Virus record (IMG/VR): IMGVR_UViG_2690316210_000003
Span: 1 to 8,594 of that record
Strand: one strand, 5' to 3'
DNA: 8,594 nucleotides
From: a virus
Taxonomy: Duplodnaviria; Heunggongvirae; Uroviricota; Caudoviricetes
The notes below the pieces were generated by a model. It saw only the letters and a list, made by a program, of their open reading frames with translations. It had not been told where the DNA came from and did no database searches. Both the position numbers and the translations under genes were made by a program. Shown in pieces: positions 1,564 through 6,015 of the stretch; the first letter of the stretch is position 1; each line of letters starts with the position of its first letter.

Positions 1564-3075
1564 ATGTTTAATCTTTTTCGACGCAAAAAGGCGGTAGAAA
1601 CTCCAGTTAAAACTAATCACCGCCAGCAACAACCAAAAATTTTCATCGATAAGCAAGTAGAAAAATTTCAGAAAGACCTGAATACACGTTCATTGGGATT
1701 AGTTGGTGATCGCATTGATGGATCGCTTCAACAAGATACTATCACAGGAACCTTCAATAAGGCTCTCAAATCGAACGGTAAGCGCCTTTATGATCAGGGT
1801 CGTACTCTGGCTATAAACAATGCTGTAGGCAAGCGATACAAGCAGTATATCGTTGACCAAGTTGTTGGTACGGGGCTTGATCCGAAACCATCAATCGTTA
1901 AATCAAATGGCAAACTTGACACCGCACTGAATAAGCAGATCGAGAATGCTTTCTGGAAGTGGGCGCAGAGTGCTAAACGCTTCTCTCGCAACGGTCGCTT
2001 TAACTTCCGTGAAATGCTGGCAATGGCAGAATCTGAACGTGTTCAGGGTGGAGAATGCTTCATCGTTTTAACCAAAGAGAACAATGAGTTACAAGTTTCT
2101 ATTCTGTCTGCTGATAGGTGCGACTGGTCGCTTAGTCGTGAAATAAGCAAAGAACGTGCGATCTATCAGGGGATTGAGTATGACGTAGACACAATGCGCC
2201 CTGTAGCATACTGGTTTAGAAAAATCAATCTACTGACTCAGACCTACACTGGCGAAAATTATCGCGTAGATGCTTCTCAGGTGTGCCACTACTACCAGCC
2301 ACTGTGCGCGGAAAGTTTACGTGGTGTGACTGACTTCCTGCCAGTGATTAAGGATATTGCGCATCAAGAAGCGTTCCGCGAAACCGCGATCGTCCAGAAA
2401 CGTATTGCAGCTAGCTCTATGGGCTTTATTGAACGTCCGAAAGATTCTGGTGACGATTTTGATACTGGTGAAGAGGATGAACAATATCAAGCGCCGGAAG
2501 TAGTACAGGACTTTGCACCGGGTACTATTCAGGAATTGCCGGAAGGGGCAACAATCAAGAGCATTCAATCATCGCAAAATGGCGATGACTTTAACAGCTT
2601 CAATGATGCGATGTTCACTAGCGTATCAATGGGCTTAGGCGTGTTCAAACAGGGCTTAACAGGAGATTGTTCACAGATCAACTACTCAGCCGCACGTTTT
2701 GGGGAACTAACCCAGCGTAACCGCATTAAAGCACTGCAAAACAAATTGATTGAAACAGTGGTATTGCCAATTTTTGAAGCATATCTACGCCATTATTCCG
2801 CGCGTGGTATTGTTCCGATTCGTATTACTGCAATTCCGCATATTATCGATAATACAACTATTATTCGTCCGCGTTTTGAATCCGTCGATCCTATTAAAGA
2901 CGTAAACGCCGAGATTGCTTTAATTCAAAATGGTCTTAAATCACGTACTGCCGTTATATTAGAACGTGGTGATGATCCTGAAAAAGTATTCTCAGAGATT
3001 CAAGCCGAAAAGAGCGCACTAAATATTATCGTTGATGGCGAGGGTGAAGAAAAAAATTCCCCAGCCGATCCCTAA
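1564..3075 (+). CDS. Probable portal protein (503 aa)
   Basis: Size typical of portals, position between terminase and protease/capsid, acidic C-terminal tail (DGEGEEKNSPADP). Assignment is by synteny and size, not a verified homology hit. Confidence 0.6.
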   Translation: MFNLFRRKKAVETPVKTNHRQQQPKIFIDKQVEKFQKDLNTRSLGLVGDRIDGSLQQDTITGTFNKALKSNGKRLYDQGRTLAINNAVGKRYKQYIVDQVVGTGLDPKPSIVKSNGKLDTALNKQIENAFWKWAQSAKRFSRNGRFNFREMLAMAESERVQGGECFIVLTKENNELQVSILSADRCDWSLSREISKERAIYQGIEYDVDTMRPVAYWFRKINLLTQTYTGENYRVDASQVCHYYQPLCAESLRGVTDFLPVIKDIAHQEAFRETAIVQKRIAASSMGFIERPKDSGDDFDTGEEDEQYQAPEVVQDFAPGTIQELPEGATIKSIQSSQNGDDFNSFNDAMFTSVSMGLGVFKQGLTGDCSQINYSAARFGELTQRNRIKALQNKLIETVVLPIFEAYLRHYSARGIVPIRITAIPHIIDNTTIIRPRFESVDPIKDVNAEIALIQNGLKSRTAVILERGDDPEKVFSEIQAEKSALNIIVDGEGEEKNSPADP

Positions 3076-3083
3076 TAACCAAC

Positions 3084-3120: not shown

Positions 3121-3630
3121 ATGCTTAAATTTCGCCGCGAACTTAACGGTTACGGTGGAGTTATTAACGAAGGGCATACTGATCAATACGAATTTGAAAT
3201 TGCTTTCTCCAGTGAACAGCCTTATCAGCGCCAATTCTGGGATGAGCAAAATCAAGAAATGGTGGTATTAGATGAAATTCTGGTACATACACCGGAAGCG
3301 GTTGATCTGTCTCGTCTGAATAATAACGCTCCGTTGCTGTTTAATCATAATTTCGATAATCATTTAGGTGTCGTTTGTAACGCTCGAATCGATGCGGATA
3401 AAGTAGGCCGTGCGACCGTTAGATTCTCTAAGCATGGCACTTTGGCTAATGATATTCGTAATAAAGTCATTGAAGGTACGATGGAAAAAATTTCTGTCGG
3501 CTATGACATTAAAGAATATCACATCGATTATGCCAAAGGACAATTGATTGTTACTAAGTTTGTTCCTTTCGAATTAAGTTTTGTTACGGTCCCGGCGGAC
3601 GATTCGGTCGGTTTAAATCGCTCTCTAAAT
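3121..3630 (+). other. HK97-type prohead protease domain (approximate bounds)
   Basis: Candidate catalytic His76 and Ser125 are 49 residues apart; I recall the same spacing for HK97 gp4 (His65/Ser114), unverified. Confidence 0.5.
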
Positions 3631-5124
3631 ACTATCACAGTTAATTTGGAGGCTAAACGCGATATGACTAAAGAACAAATTGAAGAAATCAAAGAAGAAC
3701 AAGAATCCGCTCAGGTTGAAGAAACTCCGGTAGAAGAAATTAAAGAATCGGAAGTTGAAGAAACTCAAGAGCGCCAAGTTGAAGAGAATAAAGAAGATGA
3801 AAATCTCGAAGACGGAAAAGACGCTGAACATCCTGAAAGTGTTGATGATGATAGTTCAACTGTTCGGGAAACAGAAGAAGTAAAAGAAGAACGTGAAGCT
3901 GCTCCGGTTGAAGAAGAAAAAACCGAGGAAGTGGCTGAACGTTCCGAAGAAGACGAATTAGAAATCCGCGAAATTGCACGCGAGCTAAATATTAACGACG
4001 AAGAATTAGAACGCGCATTGGCAGTTAAAGACATGACGCCGGAAGCATTCCGCACTAAGGCACTAAATAACATTACCAATGCTCAACGTATTAACGAACA
4101 ACAAATTAAGGACTCTAAAATGGAAAAAACTTTTGACCTGAACAACGTAATTCGCTCTCTGGTAGATGGTGAAGCTCTGGGTGCTCACGAAGCCGAGTTT
4201 TCTGCAATGGCTGCTACTGCAACTATGCAGCGTGGTCGTGCTGCTCGTGGTGGCTCTGTATTCGTTCCGGCTGCTGCTATGCGTGCTGCTGCTGCTGGTA
4301 ACACCAAAGCTGACCTGACTGCTATCACTGACGAAAAACTGATGACTGAATCCTACATCGAAATGCTGATGCCGGAATCCGTTCTGGGTCGTCTGGGTGT
4401 GACTGTTTATAGTGGCTTGACTGCTCCGACCGCTATTCCAAAAATGACTAAATCCAGCGTTGACGCTTTCGGCTTCGTTGATGAAAACGGTGCTGCACCG
4501 GAAGGCAAAGCTGAATTTGCAAACGTGAAACTGTCTCCTAAGACTTTTGCTGGTGGGAACCCGATCAGCCGCCAGAGCATCAAAACCGTACCGGGCATCG
4601 CTACCCTGATCACTGATCACATCAACCAGGCTGTTCGCATCAAACTGGAACAACTGATTCTGTCTGACAAAGCTAACGATCGTGGTCCGGCTGGTCTGGT
4701 TAAACAACTGGTAGACGCTAGCCGCGTTGAGAAGAAAGCTGCTTTCACCTACAAAGACTTCCTGAAAGAAATTGCTAAACTGACCGACGCTGGCGTTCCG
4801 GCACAGTCCATCAAGTTTGCAATGAGCGGTGCAACTGCTGCTGAACTGGAATCTACCCTGAAAGATAACGGCGTTTCTGGTTATATCATCGAAAACGGCA
4901 AACTGGCTGGTTACGAAGTAGTTACTTCTGGTGTTATTCCGGCAGACCACATCGTTCTGGGTGACTTCTCCGGTATTACTATCGGTGAGTGGGGCGGTCT
5001 GGAACTGGATATGGACGACACCACCTACCGCGCACAGTCCGCTATCGTTCCGCGTATCTGGGTAGATCTGGATTATGTAGTTACCCAGCCGGAAGCTCTG
5101 AAAGTTCTTCACGTCTCCGAATGA
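3121..5124 (+). CDS. Prohead protease - scaffold-like acidic segment - major capsid protein fusion ORF (667 aa)
   Basis: Single uninterrupted ORF. The N-terminal ~170 aa carry HK97-type prohead protease (S78/U35-like) motifs as I remember them: LLFNHNFDNHLG (His76), KISVGYDI (Ser125), ELSFVTVPADD. Residues ~182-333 are Glu-rich and low-complexity, like a scaffold/delta domain. Residues 334-667 are Ala/Gly-rich with strongly optimised codons, typical of a major capsid protein. Confidence 0.75.
   Translation: MLKFRRELNGYGGVINEGHTDQYEFEIAFSSEQPYQRQFWDEQNQEMVVLDEILVHTPEAVDLSRLNNNAPLLFNHNFDNHLGVVCNARIDADKVGRATVRFSKHGTLANDIRNKVIEGTMEKISVGYDIKEYHIDYAKGQLIVTKFVPFELSFVTVPADDSVGLNRSLNTITVNLEAKRDMTKEQIEEIKEEQESAQVEETPVEEIKESEVEETQERQVEENKEDENLEDGKDAEHPESVDDDSSTVRETEEVKEEREAAPVEEEKTEEVAERSEEDELEIREIARELNINDEELERALAVKDMTPEAFRTKALNNITNAQRINEQQIKDSKMEKTFDLNNVIRSLVDGEALGAHEAEFSAMAATATMQRGRAARGGSVFVPAAAMRAAAAGNTKADLTAITDEKLMTESYIEMLMPESVLGRLGVTVYSGLTAPTAIPKMTKSSVDAFGFVDENGAAPEGKAEFANVKLSPKTFAGGNPISRQSIKTVPGIATLITDHINQAVRIKLEQLILSDKANDRGPAGLVKQLVDASRVEKKAAFTYKDFLKEIAKLTDAGVPAQSIKFAMSGATAAELESTLKDNGVSGYIIENGKLAGYEVVTSGVIPADHIVLGDFSGITIGEWGGLELDMDDTTYRAQSAIVPRIWVDLDYVVTQPEALKVLHVSE
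3664..4119 (+). other. Glu-rich scaffold/delta-like segment with in-frame internal ATG at 3664
   Basis: About 150 residues dominated by E/K/V with 39-bp periodic GTTGAAGAA(ACT) repeats (3715, 3754, 3778); GGAGG at 3648-3652 lies 11 nt upstream of the in-frame ATG 3664. Confidence 0.45.
4120..5124 (+). other. Major capsid protein domain (HK97-fold candidate) with in-frame internal ATG at 4120
   Basis: AAGGA at 4108-4112 lies 7 nt upstream of ATG 4120 (MEKTFDL...). From here to the stop, Leu is almost exclusively CTG and Arg CGT, with Gly GGT and Ala GCT favoured, unlike the upstream part of the same ORF. Confidence 0.6.
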
Positions 5125-5146
5125 ACTAGCTTAGAACCTTCTGAAC

Positions 5147-5167
5147 CTTCCCCCGATTTGGGGGAAG
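5147..5167 (+). promoter_or_regulatory. Perfect 8-bp stem-loop (CTTCCCCC-gattt-GGGGGAAG) 22 nt downstream of the capsid stop
   Basis: Read directly; followed by purine-rich sequence, no U-tract. Confidence 0.5.
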
Positions 5168-5261
5168 AAAATCTGATTCCATCTCAGGAAGAAGAAGTTC
5201 AAGAGGTTACGGCGAAAGCCACAGTTAAAAAAGAACGTAAGACTAAAGCAAAATAATAATT

Positions 5262-5288
5262 AGCCCTGCCTAACGGTGGGGCTTTTTT
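5262..5288 (+). terminator. Rho-independent terminator after the capsid gene
   Basis: agccctgcc-taac-ggtggggct forms a 9-bp stem (two G-U pairs) followed immediately by TTTTT(T); located after the TAATAA double stop. Confidence 0.7.
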
Positions 5289-5303
5289 GTATGTAAATAC
5301 TCC

Positions 5304-5318: not shown

Positions 5319-5609
5319 ATGTTCAAATTATCAGAATCACAATTATCAAGAATGTTTAAGAGTGCTCCTGTATTTGTGGTGGAAGGTGGTAAATCAATTC
5401 GTGCTTACCATGAAATTACTACTACCGACGAACAAGGGGTAATTACAGAATCAGAATTTCTATTTTGTCGTGAGGGAGACTTAAATCAGGGTGATGTTGT
5501 CATTGTAGACGGTGAACGCTTCAAAGTTCAATACGTTAAGCGCAATGGTGATAATACTTCTGATTGCTTTATTGCTCGTGCAGGGGGTACACATGCTCGC
5601 TACCGTTAA
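5319..5609 (+). CDS. Small virion protein (96 aa), possible head-tail adaptor/head-closure protein
   Basis: Strong RBS; the C-terminal GDVVIVDGERFKVQYV segment resembles the end of head-tail joining proteins as I recall them. Position is immediately downstream of the capsid gene. Function tentative. Confidence 0.75.
   Translation: MFKLSESQLSRMFKSAPVFVVEGGKSIRAYHEITTTDEQGVITESEFLFCREGDLNQGDVVIVDGERFKVQYVKRNGDNTSDCFIARAGGTHARYR
5582..5592 (+). promoter_or_regulatory. Ribosome-binding site embedded in the 3' coding end of the 96-aa gene (AGGGGGTACAC)
   Basis: GGGGGTA + 3 nt + ATG 5593, same geometry as the RBSs at 1059, 5319 and 6025. Confidence 0.6.
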
Positions 5610-6015
5610 TAATATGCCGAGACTGAAAATCAAACGCGCCTTGCAAGATATTATCGAACAAGATTTAGGTCTGGCTTTAAACGTAGAACAAACTCAGCAA
5701 GGCTTTAGTGATGACGTGGTTTGTTGGATTACTGGCATGAATGAAACTTATACGCGTGTTCGTGGTGGTAATGCAATGCAAGCTGAATGCGTTATCGAAA
5801 TGCAGTTGTATTCTCAGAATCATGAAACAAAAATCCATGAGGGTATTTGCCAGATAATCCAGATTCAGCCGGATAACCCACGATTTAAAGATTTGGGCTT
5901 CTCTATTTCAGATATCACTCCAGTAGCTTCTAATACCGATTATGACGATGATTCTAGTGATGGGGGTATCGTTGGGACACTTAGCCTTAAATTTTCTTAT
6001 CTAGCGCGTTTTTAA
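5593..6015 (+). CDS. Hypothetical structural protein (141 aa from ATG 5593), possible connector/tail-completion protein
   Basis: Same frame as the listed 5512..6015 ORF, but 5512 is a GTG with no RBS inside the upstream gene; ATG 5593 has the conserved RBS. Overlaps the upstream gene by 17 nt. ATG 5614 is an alternative start without a recognisable RBS. Confidence 0.7.
   Translation: MLATVNNMPRLKIKRALQDIIEQDLGLALNVEQTQQGFSDDVVCWITGMNETYTRVRGGNAMQAECVIEMQLYSQNHETKIHEGICQIIQIQPDNPRFKDLGFSISDITPVASNTDYDDDSSDGGIVGTLSLKFSYLARF

Follow-up and report, generated by a model that had tools for sequence, protein, structure and literature searches.

The window, the whole stretch of 8,594 nucleotides of phage DNA analysed here, carries a major capsid gene that ends in UGA and is followed in the same frame by 43 open codons embedded in a structured RNA. 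On balance, the sequences make it probable that the UGA gates a readthrough extension within this RNA and that a minor form of the capsid subunit ends in an acidic linker followed by a basic tail. Among relatives the UGA-A is invariant, the frame stays open through substitutions and indels and is closed by tandem stops, and the RNA fold is constrained at the level of the nucleotide. The features of the region are the following.

3121–5124, + strand: prohead protease–scaffold–major capsid protein fusion gene, 667 aa, with Pfam domain matches
5122–5125, + strand: capsid stop UGA with the next A (UGA-A), invariant in 74/74 sequences
5125–5253, + strand: 43-codon in-frame extension, TSLEPSEPSPDLGEENLIPSQEEEVQEVTAKATVKKERKTKAK, an acidic Pro/Ser/Glu-rich part and then a basic Ala/Lys-rich tail
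5254–5259, + strand: tandem stops TAA TAA, which close the extension 2 nt upstream of the terminator stem
5262–5289, + strand: intrinsic terminator with a 9-bp stem, a 4-nt loop and a T-run, kept in all relatives
5319–5609, + strand: the next gene, for a head-tail attachment-like protein of 96 aa (PF05354 Phage_attach, E = 2e-5)

The fusion product matches PF04586 (Peptidase_S78, E = 1.8e-10) and PF05065 (Phage_capsid, E = 3e-25), its nearest solved structure is the roseophage R4C capsid protein (8gta), and its relatives carry the RefSeq label 'phage major capsid protein'. The capsid domain spans approximately 4120–5121 and ends in ...LKVLHVSE; CTG accounts for 25 of its 27 Leu codons and CCG for 11 of its 13 Pro codons. 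The codon usage of the extension is not optimised, as the earlier note had remarked, with no CCG among four Pro codons and with GGG, TTA, TTG, ACG and ACA in use. The terminator that the same note placed right after the TAA-TAA is indeed there: a stem-loop at 5262–5283, in which six of the nine base pairs are G-C, runs into TTTTTGTATG, as befits an intrinsic terminator, and its loop varies by 1–2-nt indels among relatives. The gene at 5319–5609 is context and lies outside the extension; its PF05354 match falls slightly under the curated cut-off, and its relatives are labelled hypothetical protein.

The TGA at 5122–5124 is followed by 43 open codons and then by TAA-TAA at 5254–5259, just as first described, and the two other forward frames are soon closed, with stops at alignment columns 2 and 7 past the TGA. 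The frames on the reverse strand over the extension are likewise mostly open; an antisense gene was considered and rejected, as these frames are open to the extent that purine-rich sequence predicts, a stop interrupts them in two haplotypes and the region contains no start codon. The chance of an open stretch of 43 codons, previously put at one in ten, comes to 0.055–0.067 when computed from composition, by shuffling and from the window's own stop-to-stop distances; the exact figure is thus a little lower, and it is not significant for a single sequence. One sequence proves little at a chance of ~0.06, and the case for a candidate coding frame is carried by comparison.

The comparison covered 74 related sequences, from E. 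coli prophages or metagenomes, with 39 extension haplotypes, 15 of the sequences having been found solely via a downstream anchor, a choice blind to the extension. The element that bears the extension occurs as prophages in 55 of 5,426 complete E. coli genomes, together with metagenome or IMG/VR contigs; megablast against 50,697 phage records gave no match to it, and a 15-nt motif scan of IMG/VR returned mainly chance matches and no new haplotype. In the alignment with relatives that the earlier note had called for, the frame stayed open behind a conserved UGA in 74/74 sequences, and neither an in-frame stop nor a frame-breaking indel, which would have spoken against readthrough, occurs in any of them. 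None of the 39 haplotypes has an in-frame stop in the extension; polymorphic stops occur at 11 positions in frames +1 and +2 and at none in frame 0. Extension length falls into seven classes (81, 84, 99, 126, 129, 132 and 135 nt, or 27–45 codons), every one a multiple of three, and the indel events, of which there are at least six, are all 3n (p ≤ (1/3)^6 = 0.0014). The adjoining spacer of 58–62 nt changes length by 1-nt steps and carries 1–2-nt indels. The closing tandem stops are TAATAA in 65 sequences, TGATAA in seven and TAATAATAA in two, and the terminal stops lie 2 nt 5' of the terminator stem in 74/74. A TGA with an extension also stands behind a capsid protein 39% identical to that of the window (L017 type). 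An in-frame downstream ORF is thus maintained across relatives, as readthrough of the Qβ A1 type would lead one to expect. A stop-avoidance test falls to p ~0.07–0.09 after allowing for the few T at codon position 1, and since the 74 sequences are one recombining clade, the link between TGA and extension has a single evolutionary origin.

The stop codon is conserved while its surroundings change: TGA-A is kept in 74/74 sequences across 12 distinct flanking contexts with variable neighbouring codons, and the codon before it is always Glu or Asp (GAA 53, GAG 9 and GAC 8 in the 70 sequences tallied). Distant capsid relatives (32–44% identity), which have no extension, stop at TAA, often TAATAA, with one exception. 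Among the other genes in the window, 5/6 have a TAA stop and three have TAATAA, the same signature that closes the extension. A leaky stop conserved at the end of an upstream ORF is again a mark of Qβ A1-type readthrough, and UGA is read through at 2–4% in E. coli K-12 reporters, where Trp-tRNA competes with RF2 (PMC10570021). A search for fused forms, with the capsid domain, W and the extension as the query against 5.8 billion proteins, gave matches that all end at 88% query coverage among the 120 listed, and none of the 120 capsid clusters listed has the TGA replaced by a sense codon.

The strongest constraint on the region is on RNA pairing, synonymous sites included, rather than on the peptide. 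The RNA elements are as follows.

5135–5208, + strand: three-way RNA fold, MFE −57.7 kcal/mol, z = −5.07
5135–5146 with 5197–5208, + strand: outer stem P1, enclosing P2 and P3
5147–5154 with 5160–5167, + strand: P2, the hairpin of the earlier note, CTTCCCCC-GATTT-GGGGGAAG, perfect over 8 bp
5172–5180 with 5187–5195, + strand: P3, inside P1
5211–5220, + strand: P4, a mini-hairpin GGC-GAAA-GCC within Ala-Lys-Ala codons

None of 200 shuffles folds as well as the three-way fold, and the folding z lies between −3.5 and −6.2 in all 30 haplotypes folded. Variable columns make up 0/44 of the paired and 25/53 of the unpaired ones (Fisher 1e-8), and 0/16 third codon positions in stems vary, whereas 84% of those in the capsid gene do so at the same loci. 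The 8-bp hairpin reported 22 nt past the stop is present at 5147–5167, not as a standalone element but as one arm of this larger conserved fold. The short allele does without it and has an unrelated 11-bp hairpin at equal distance, the base of the fold being 10 nt past the UGA in long, deleted and short alleles. Within the long allele 22/22 pairs are invariant and show no covariation; support for the structure comes instead from the contrast between paired and unpaired columns and from the short allele. A compensatory double change is seen in each of three helices; in P4 of one relative (L016), GGA-GAAA-UCC turns AKA into EKS, and another change costs V to A. That such changes are tolerated at an amino-acid cost places the dominant constraint on the RNA.

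The same evidence is what a purely non-coding structured 3' UTR would present, one whose hairpins stabilise or process the capsid mRNA so that capsid and downstream genes are expressed differentially, with the frame, the 3n indels and the TGA as coincidence. The puf operon hairpins and REP elements are intercistronic or 3' stem-loops of this kind, which stabilise upstream mRNA segments. Like the fold described here, they lie just 3' of a highly expressed gene and 5' of less expressed genes, beside a terminator; unlike it, they are not in frame with the upstream gene and follow no conserved leaky stop. The lack of conservation in amino-acid identity and the unoptimised codons would also suit a non-coding element, as would a sister clade of capsid relatives, which has a conserved hairpin with compensatory changes directly after a TAA stop. 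However, coincidence leaves unexplained why the indels are all 3n next to a spacer with only 1–2-nt indels, why frame 0 lacks stops and the tandem closing stops are constant, and why the most highly expressed gene keeps TGA-A in 74/74 although TAA or TAATAA is the stop in neighbouring genes and in distant relatives. Nor was any Rfam family matched, a scan by E-value giving just weak terminator-driven matches. We consider a purely non-coding role the main rival reading, though a somewhat unlikely one.

Purifying selection on the peptide, the other expectation placed on the alignment, could not be detected: there are at minimum 37 non-synonymous against 19 synonymous changes, and an excess at third positions is absent. 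Of the amino-acid-level signature that readthrough would normally carry, only the charge pattern is conserved. The argument for the frame rests on frame-aware indel statistics and not on dN/dS. In every haplotype the first part has a charge of −3 to −9 and the last 16 residues one of +4 to +6, and the acidic head and basic tail recur in the short allele despite its unrelated sequence. The peptide seems to matter by composition, that is by charge pattern and disorder, over exact sequence; the acidic and basic character could be partly a by-product of purine-rich and A-rich RNA. The window allele has no match to the AT-hook PF02178, and the allele with ...KKVGRPPKAK reaches 13.3 bits (E = 0.079), under the 17.4-bit cut-off.

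A frame that stays open while the peptide is free to vary, with its closing stops so close to the terminator in all 74 sequences, would also follow if translation mattered and the peptide did not, readthrough ribosomes covering the 5' arm of the terminator and thereby setting transcription into the head-completion and tail genes. In the sister clade, −1-frame ORFs mostly end 4–8 nt before the terminator and fused tails 12–22 nt before it, which would agree with such a role. It is nevertheless improbable: the effect would be confined to the ribosome that directly follows the polymerase, and to readthrough events of a few per cent, which ordinary leakiness of the terminator would presumably swamp, the stable fold between stop and terminator would hinder coupling, and the conserved charge pattern would be left unexplained.

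The stable hairpin after the UGA and an in-frame TTG at 5158–5160 could also be taken for signs of selenocysteine insertion directed by the hairpin or of a separate small gene with its own start, both of which we consider highly improbable. The extension has no ATG, its sole TTG has no Shine-Dalgarno-like sequence upstream and lies within the segment missing from the short allele, and the frame is open directly from the TGA in all alleles. For selenocysteine, no SECIS or other Rfam match was found to E = 10, and the hairpin varies between alleles in sequence, loop and distance. No tRNA gene, whether for a suppressor or a selenocysteine tRNA, was found in the window.

If the UGA is indeed read through, the 138 nt between capsid stop and terminator would serve two functions together. 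UGA-A would halt most ribosomes, and a small percentage would decode the UGA as an amino acid, most probably Trp by way of tRNA-Trp, and go on to add 43 codons up to the TAA-TAA. The extended capsid species would be ~4.7 kDa larger and would span ...HVSE-X-TSLEPSEPSPDLGEENLIPSQ..., the stop-crossing sequence in relatives, with UGA as Trp, being …VLHISE-W-T[SN]VEPSEPSPDLGEENLIPSQEEE…. In this minor subunit the linker would be acidic and disordered and the tail basic (Lys/Ala/Arg), and each shell would take up a few copies during assembly, in the manner of T7 10B or Qβ A1. We infer that readthrough proceeds at a useful rate and that the product enters capsids with the tail facing outwards; the R4C and D3 capsid papers do not state the orientation of the capsid C-terminus. 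The fold may either act as a recoding stimulator that slows termination at the UGA or stabilise the 3' end of the abundant capsid mRNA.

Known systems resemble this arrangement in part. Qβ A1 arises by UGA-to-Trp readthrough of the coat stop at a rate of ~1/15 (PMC8067240), and there as here a capsid gene ends in UGA ahead of an in-frame downstream ORF, low-level decoding of the UGA giving Qβ its minor virion subunit. However, the coat of Qβ, an ssRNA levivirus, has an unrelated fold, and its extension of 196 residues is folded and needed for infection, whereas the phage considered here is temperate, has dsDNA and an HK97-type capsid protein, and its extension of 27–45 residues looks disordered by composition. 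In T7, a 52-residue frameshift extension is found on ~10% of capsid subunits and is conserved yet dispensable (PMC3185693). The 10A/10B pair of T7/T3 thus shares with the window a dsDNA phage and an HK97-fold capsid, the sub-stoichiometric C-terminal extension of T7 being made by recoding near the gene end. Its mechanism is a −1 frameshift rather than the stop-codon readthrough proposed here, no acidic/basic pattern is known for the T7 extension, and its whole length is not covered by a multi-helix RNA fold. A slippery site with a frame shift of the T7 10A/10B type was not found in the window, where the extension follows the stop immediately and in frame 0; a −1 frame arrangement occurs only in the sister clade.

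For the RNA, the parallels come from eukaryotic viruses, in which readthrough-stimulating structures stand behind spacers of at least 8 nt, and in which the MoMLV pseudoknot and the extended stem-loops of alphaviruses and coltiviruses place a stable structure inside the extension ORF after the UGA (PMC13517186). Here, likewise, a stable conserved structure lies a short, constant distance behind the stop, and its spacer of 10 nt is kept in alleles whose stem sequences are unrelated. The viral stimulators act on eukaryotic ribosomes and eRF1. The structure in the window runs far past the stop, into P4 and P5, which are too distant to act on the UGA. To our knowledge, no 3' structure has been demonstrated to stimulate readthrough at bacterial RF2 termination, and none with a 10-nt spacer.

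In the sister clade, Ala/Lys/Glu tails are fused straight to the capsid C-terminus, so that tails of this kind are present in the capsid family. Homology of the extension to them was considered and rejected, with local alignment scores of at most 28; the best match is a single 14-nt identity, TAAAGCAAAATAAT, with L090, which is weak in A-rich sequence. A broader idea, unlikely and offered tentatively, is that this capsid family may add basic tails to a chosen share of its subunits by three interchangeable routes, namely direct fusion, slippage into the −1 frame at an A-AAR Lys site, and readthrough of UGA, with the post-stop hairpins as recoding stimulators. If true, bacterial ribosomes would have a first natural case of stop-codon readthrough assisted by RNA structure, and dsDNA phages a first capsid variant made by readthrough.

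Examples of functional stop-codon readthrough are well established for RNA viruses and eukaryotes, and we know of very few cases in bacteria and dsDNA phages; a literature search found no dsDNA-phage capsid example of readthrough. The present case teaches that an open frame past a stop may overlap an RNA element whose constraint hides the usual coding signatures. Were the extension untranslated, the region would still be an unannotated, strongly structured RNA element beside the capsid gene. If the extended subunit is real, it would provide a naturally tuned way of equipping an HK97-type shell with a small number of flexible, charged tails, of use in display engineering, and a tractable E. coli system for the effect of RNA structure on RF2 termination.

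Judged by its gene content, the window is a lambda-like head module. In it, the prohead protease, an extremely Glu/Asp-rich scaffold-like linker (about residues 180-330) and the capsid domain form a single polypeptide, and the length of this linker differs between relatives (products of 634-670 aa). The genes and the elements around the capsid stop are as follows.

66-986, terminase gpA nuclease domain
1059-1553, 164-aa gene
1564-3075, lambda-family portal
3121-5124, 667-aa fusion of S78 prohead protease, very acidic scaffold-like stretch and HK97-type major capsid domain
5122-5124, capsid stop TGA
5147-5167, 8-bp hairpin, 22 nt after the capsid stop
5254-5259, tandem stops TAA TAA closing the 43-codon frame
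5262-5289, intrinsic terminator
5319-5609, head-tail attachment-like gene, with further genes after it

Beyond the terminator, the genes at 5319-5609 and 5593-6015 share a 17-nt overlap; the second could start earlier, at a GTG at 5512, and RefSeq relatives use the equivalent of 5593. Opposite the capsid domain lies a 349-aa open reading frame on the minus strand (4063-5112), which is most likely a side effect of the capsid gene's strong codon bias.

The layout described in the earlier note, namely a TGA followed by 43 open codons, TAA TAA and the terminator, with the other forward frames shut immediately after the capsid stop and a hairpin 22 nt past it, is borne out by the sequence. Given that 43 open codons have a chance probability of 0.055-0.067, and that any of the window's seven genes could show such a run, the open frame in one sequence is weak evidence by itself. 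TAA ends five of the six non-capsid genes (five of all seven), and the tandem TAATAA ends three of these six (984-989, 3073-3078 and 5607-5612; three of all seven). Two genes, the capsid gene among them, stop at TGA; behind the capsid gene alone runs a long open frame, which lacks its own start codon. The weak stop therefore sits on what is surely the most highly expressed gene of the window, and the extension closes with the 'true end' signature usual in this genome. Two readings of the extension, as a small gene in its own right and as an antisense gene, were rejected.

No close sequenced phage was found, and the module is present as a prophage in 55 of 5,426 complete E. coli genomes at 73-94% identity. 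The comparison set of 74 sequences, in which 39 different haplotypes of the extension occur, draws on E. coli chromosomes (23), IMG/VR records (36), a protein look-up (one) and metagenome contigs (14), the last drawn from 15 matched exactly and solely through sequence downstream of the terminator, so that their selection was blind to the extension. Some prophage copies are in visible decay (L005 with IS903B, L014 with IS1A cutting the capsid gene, L055 with a broken capsid frame and L254 with IS3), and thus some of the 74 sequences are without current selection; the extension is intact and in frame even in these four.

Across the whole set, the frame behind the capsid stop has been kept open. 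In-frame stops and frame-breaking indels, which the earlier note named as evidence against an extension, occur in the extension of none of the 74 sequences. TGA is followed by A in 74 of 74, the codon before it is always Glu or Asp while neighbouring codons differ (12 contexts), and the frame runs on to two or more stops in tandem (TAATAA in 65, TGATAA in 7 and TAATAATAA in 2). The extensions fall into seven length classes (81, 84, 99, 126, 129, 132 and 135 nt), all multiples of three, and six or more indel events are needed to account for them (p <= 0.0014, assuming that one third of indels are multiples of three by chance). In the adjoining downstream spacer, 1- and 2-nt indels give all five lengths of 58-62 nt. 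Stop triplets come and go at 11 positions of frames +1 and +2 and never in frame 0, an avoidance with p = 0.012 if the frames are treated as equal, rising to about 0.07-0.09 when the rarity of T in the first codon position is taken into account. In capsid relatives from Atlantibacter, Yersinia, Leclercia, Phytobacter and IMG/VR, which are 32-44% identical, the gene stops at TAA, often TAATAA, with one TGA exception, and no comparable extension follows. The TGA, extension, terminator and downstream genes (about 90% nucleotide identity) also stand behind a capsid domain that shares just 39% identity with that of the window (4120-5124), at loci L017-L019 and L256-L259, with the mosaic junction right at the stop codon.

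The peptide itself is poorly conserved. Of the two signs of a genuine extension anticipated in the earlier note, the open frame is retained and purifying selection on the peptide is not seen: changes are many and non-conservative, with a minimum of 37 non-synonymous against 19 synonymous. Composition alone is kept: Pro, Ser and Glu abound in an acidic first part of net charge -3 to -9, and the stretch formed by the final 16 residues is basic (+4 to +6), with the tail alleles ...KKERKTKAK, ...KKQRKTKE, ...KKVGRPPKAK, ...KRGRKPKE and ...KKAGRPPKAKE. The likeness of the GRP-containing tail allele to an AT-hook stays under the threshold (E = 0.079), and the tail allele of the window has none. The charge pattern could partly be a by-product of purine-rich and A-rich RNA, and is therefore weak evidence on its own.

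On the other hand, the segment from TGA to TAATAA folds far better than its shuffles in every haplotype (z = -5.07 in the window; -3.5 to -6.2 across 30 haplotypes). Long alleles fold with P2, which is the 8-bp hairpin, and P3 inside an outer stem P1 (5135-5146 paired to 5197-5208), and the mini-hairpin P4 (GGC-GAAA-GCC) comes next. Among 20 long haplotypes, 0 of 44 paired columns vary as against 25 of 53 unpaired ones (Fisher 1e-8), and 0 of 16 third codon positions in stems vary as against 84% of capsid-gene third positions at the same loci. The 28-codon allele carries an unrelated 11-bp hairpin with a GAAA loop in place of P1-P3. In six such short haplotypes, pairing holds in 98% of cells and all three helices carry a single compensatory double change each, a covariation equalled in 2 of 500 shuffles. 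Two of these events alter amino acids (AKA to EKS, and V to A plus a silent Pro change); hence pairing outranks peptide identity, and the main constraint visible in the extension is on the RNA. A purely non-coding structured 3' UTR would account for these RNA data, yet it leaves the indels in multiples of three, the missing frame-0 stops, the invariant TGA-A and the tandem terminal stops unexplained, and we regard it as rather unlikely.

An extension gated by UGA readthrough, whose coding sequence is also an RNA element, would cover both constraints, and it is the reading towards which we lean, if only modestly. The earlier note's proposal of a minor capsid subunit with an acidic linker and a basic tail is thus supported in part: the observation stands, and the data point to structured RNA overlapping a frame that has stayed open past a conserved weak stop. 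The feasibility of readthrough is not in doubt, as UGA is read through at 2-4% in E. coli K-12 reporters, where Trp-tRNA competes with RF2 (PMC10570021). With several hundred subunits in a shell, readthrough at a few per cent would put the extension on a handful of them. Display work with T7 and P22 is the basis for placing the tail outside the shell, a location that we assume here. Precedents for a recoded minor subunit are the 52-residue extension on 10% of T7 subunits, made by frameshift (PMC3185693), and A1 of Qβ, a UGA readthrough product at about 1/15 (PMC8067240); such a subunit made by readthrough in a dsDNA prophage, set in a conserved RNA fold, is a reasonable, if far from certain, interpretation of the comparative sequence data.

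In the long, 27-nt-deleted and short alleles alike, the fold begins exactly 10 nt past the UGA. This spacing agrees with the 'spacer of eight or more' described for structures that stimulate readthrough in eukaryotic viruses (PMC13517186), but P4 and P5 are too distant to act on the stop. The fold might equally plausibly stimulate readthrough or stabilise or process the capsid mRNA, and both roles could coexist. An Rfam scan of the region gave no matching family and no SECIS match, and selenocysteine insertion at the UGA was rejected on the latter and on the differing hairpins of the alleles. A regulatory model, in which readthrough ribosomes mask the terminator, would account for a kept frame without peptide constraint, but ordinary terminator leakiness should swamp the effect, making it highly improbable.

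A sister clade with capsid proteins 41-44% identical, likewise E. coli prophages, has two arrangements. In the first, a short Ala/Lys/Glu tail is fused to the capsid C-terminus (...YEKGTPAEAKAAKQ, ...GTPAEVKAALKASA and ...GEAEAGETRKAK, each up to the stop). Loci L060, L062, L090, L246 and L247 carry such in-frame tails of 10-14 Ala/Lys/Glu/Pro residues (GTPAEAKAAKQ, GTPAEAPAEAKAGK, GEAEAGETRKAK and GTPAEVKAALKASA), with no additional hairpin before the terminator. In the second (L248:1660-1790, L061, L253, L059, L058 and L020), TAA comes two or three codons past a conserved ...EK, the protein ending in the residues ...EK(K)TGA or ...EKQA, and a conserved hairpin with compensatory changes (GGAGAA/TTCTCC, GGAGCA/TGCTCC, GGGGTT/GACCCC) lies 6-8 nt after the stop. 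There a -1 reading frame without stops runs from an A-AAR lysine site (canonical A_AAA_AAG in L248, A_AAA_AAA in L059) to a basic tail, e.g. ...GSLTDTGAQAAPVRKPRALKVTK, mostly ending just before the terminator, and indels are again multiples of three. The L020 record (PQ671644.1, Escherichia phage DCP80, 5789-7789), which holds a homologue of the protease-capsid fusion and downstream genes, is classed as a T4-like Straboviridae phage of 141 kb and could be a chimeric assembly or mis-binned prophage fragment.

In the second arrangement, the same capsid extension may be produced by a -1 frameshift, with the caution that the 12-18 nt between slip site and hairpin is long and that frame 0 is open as well in three of its sequences. 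At the DNA level, the sister-clade tails show no significant homology to the extension in the window. Taken together, these comparisons suggest, but do not prove, that this family adds tails to its capsid protein by fusion, frameshift or readthrough.
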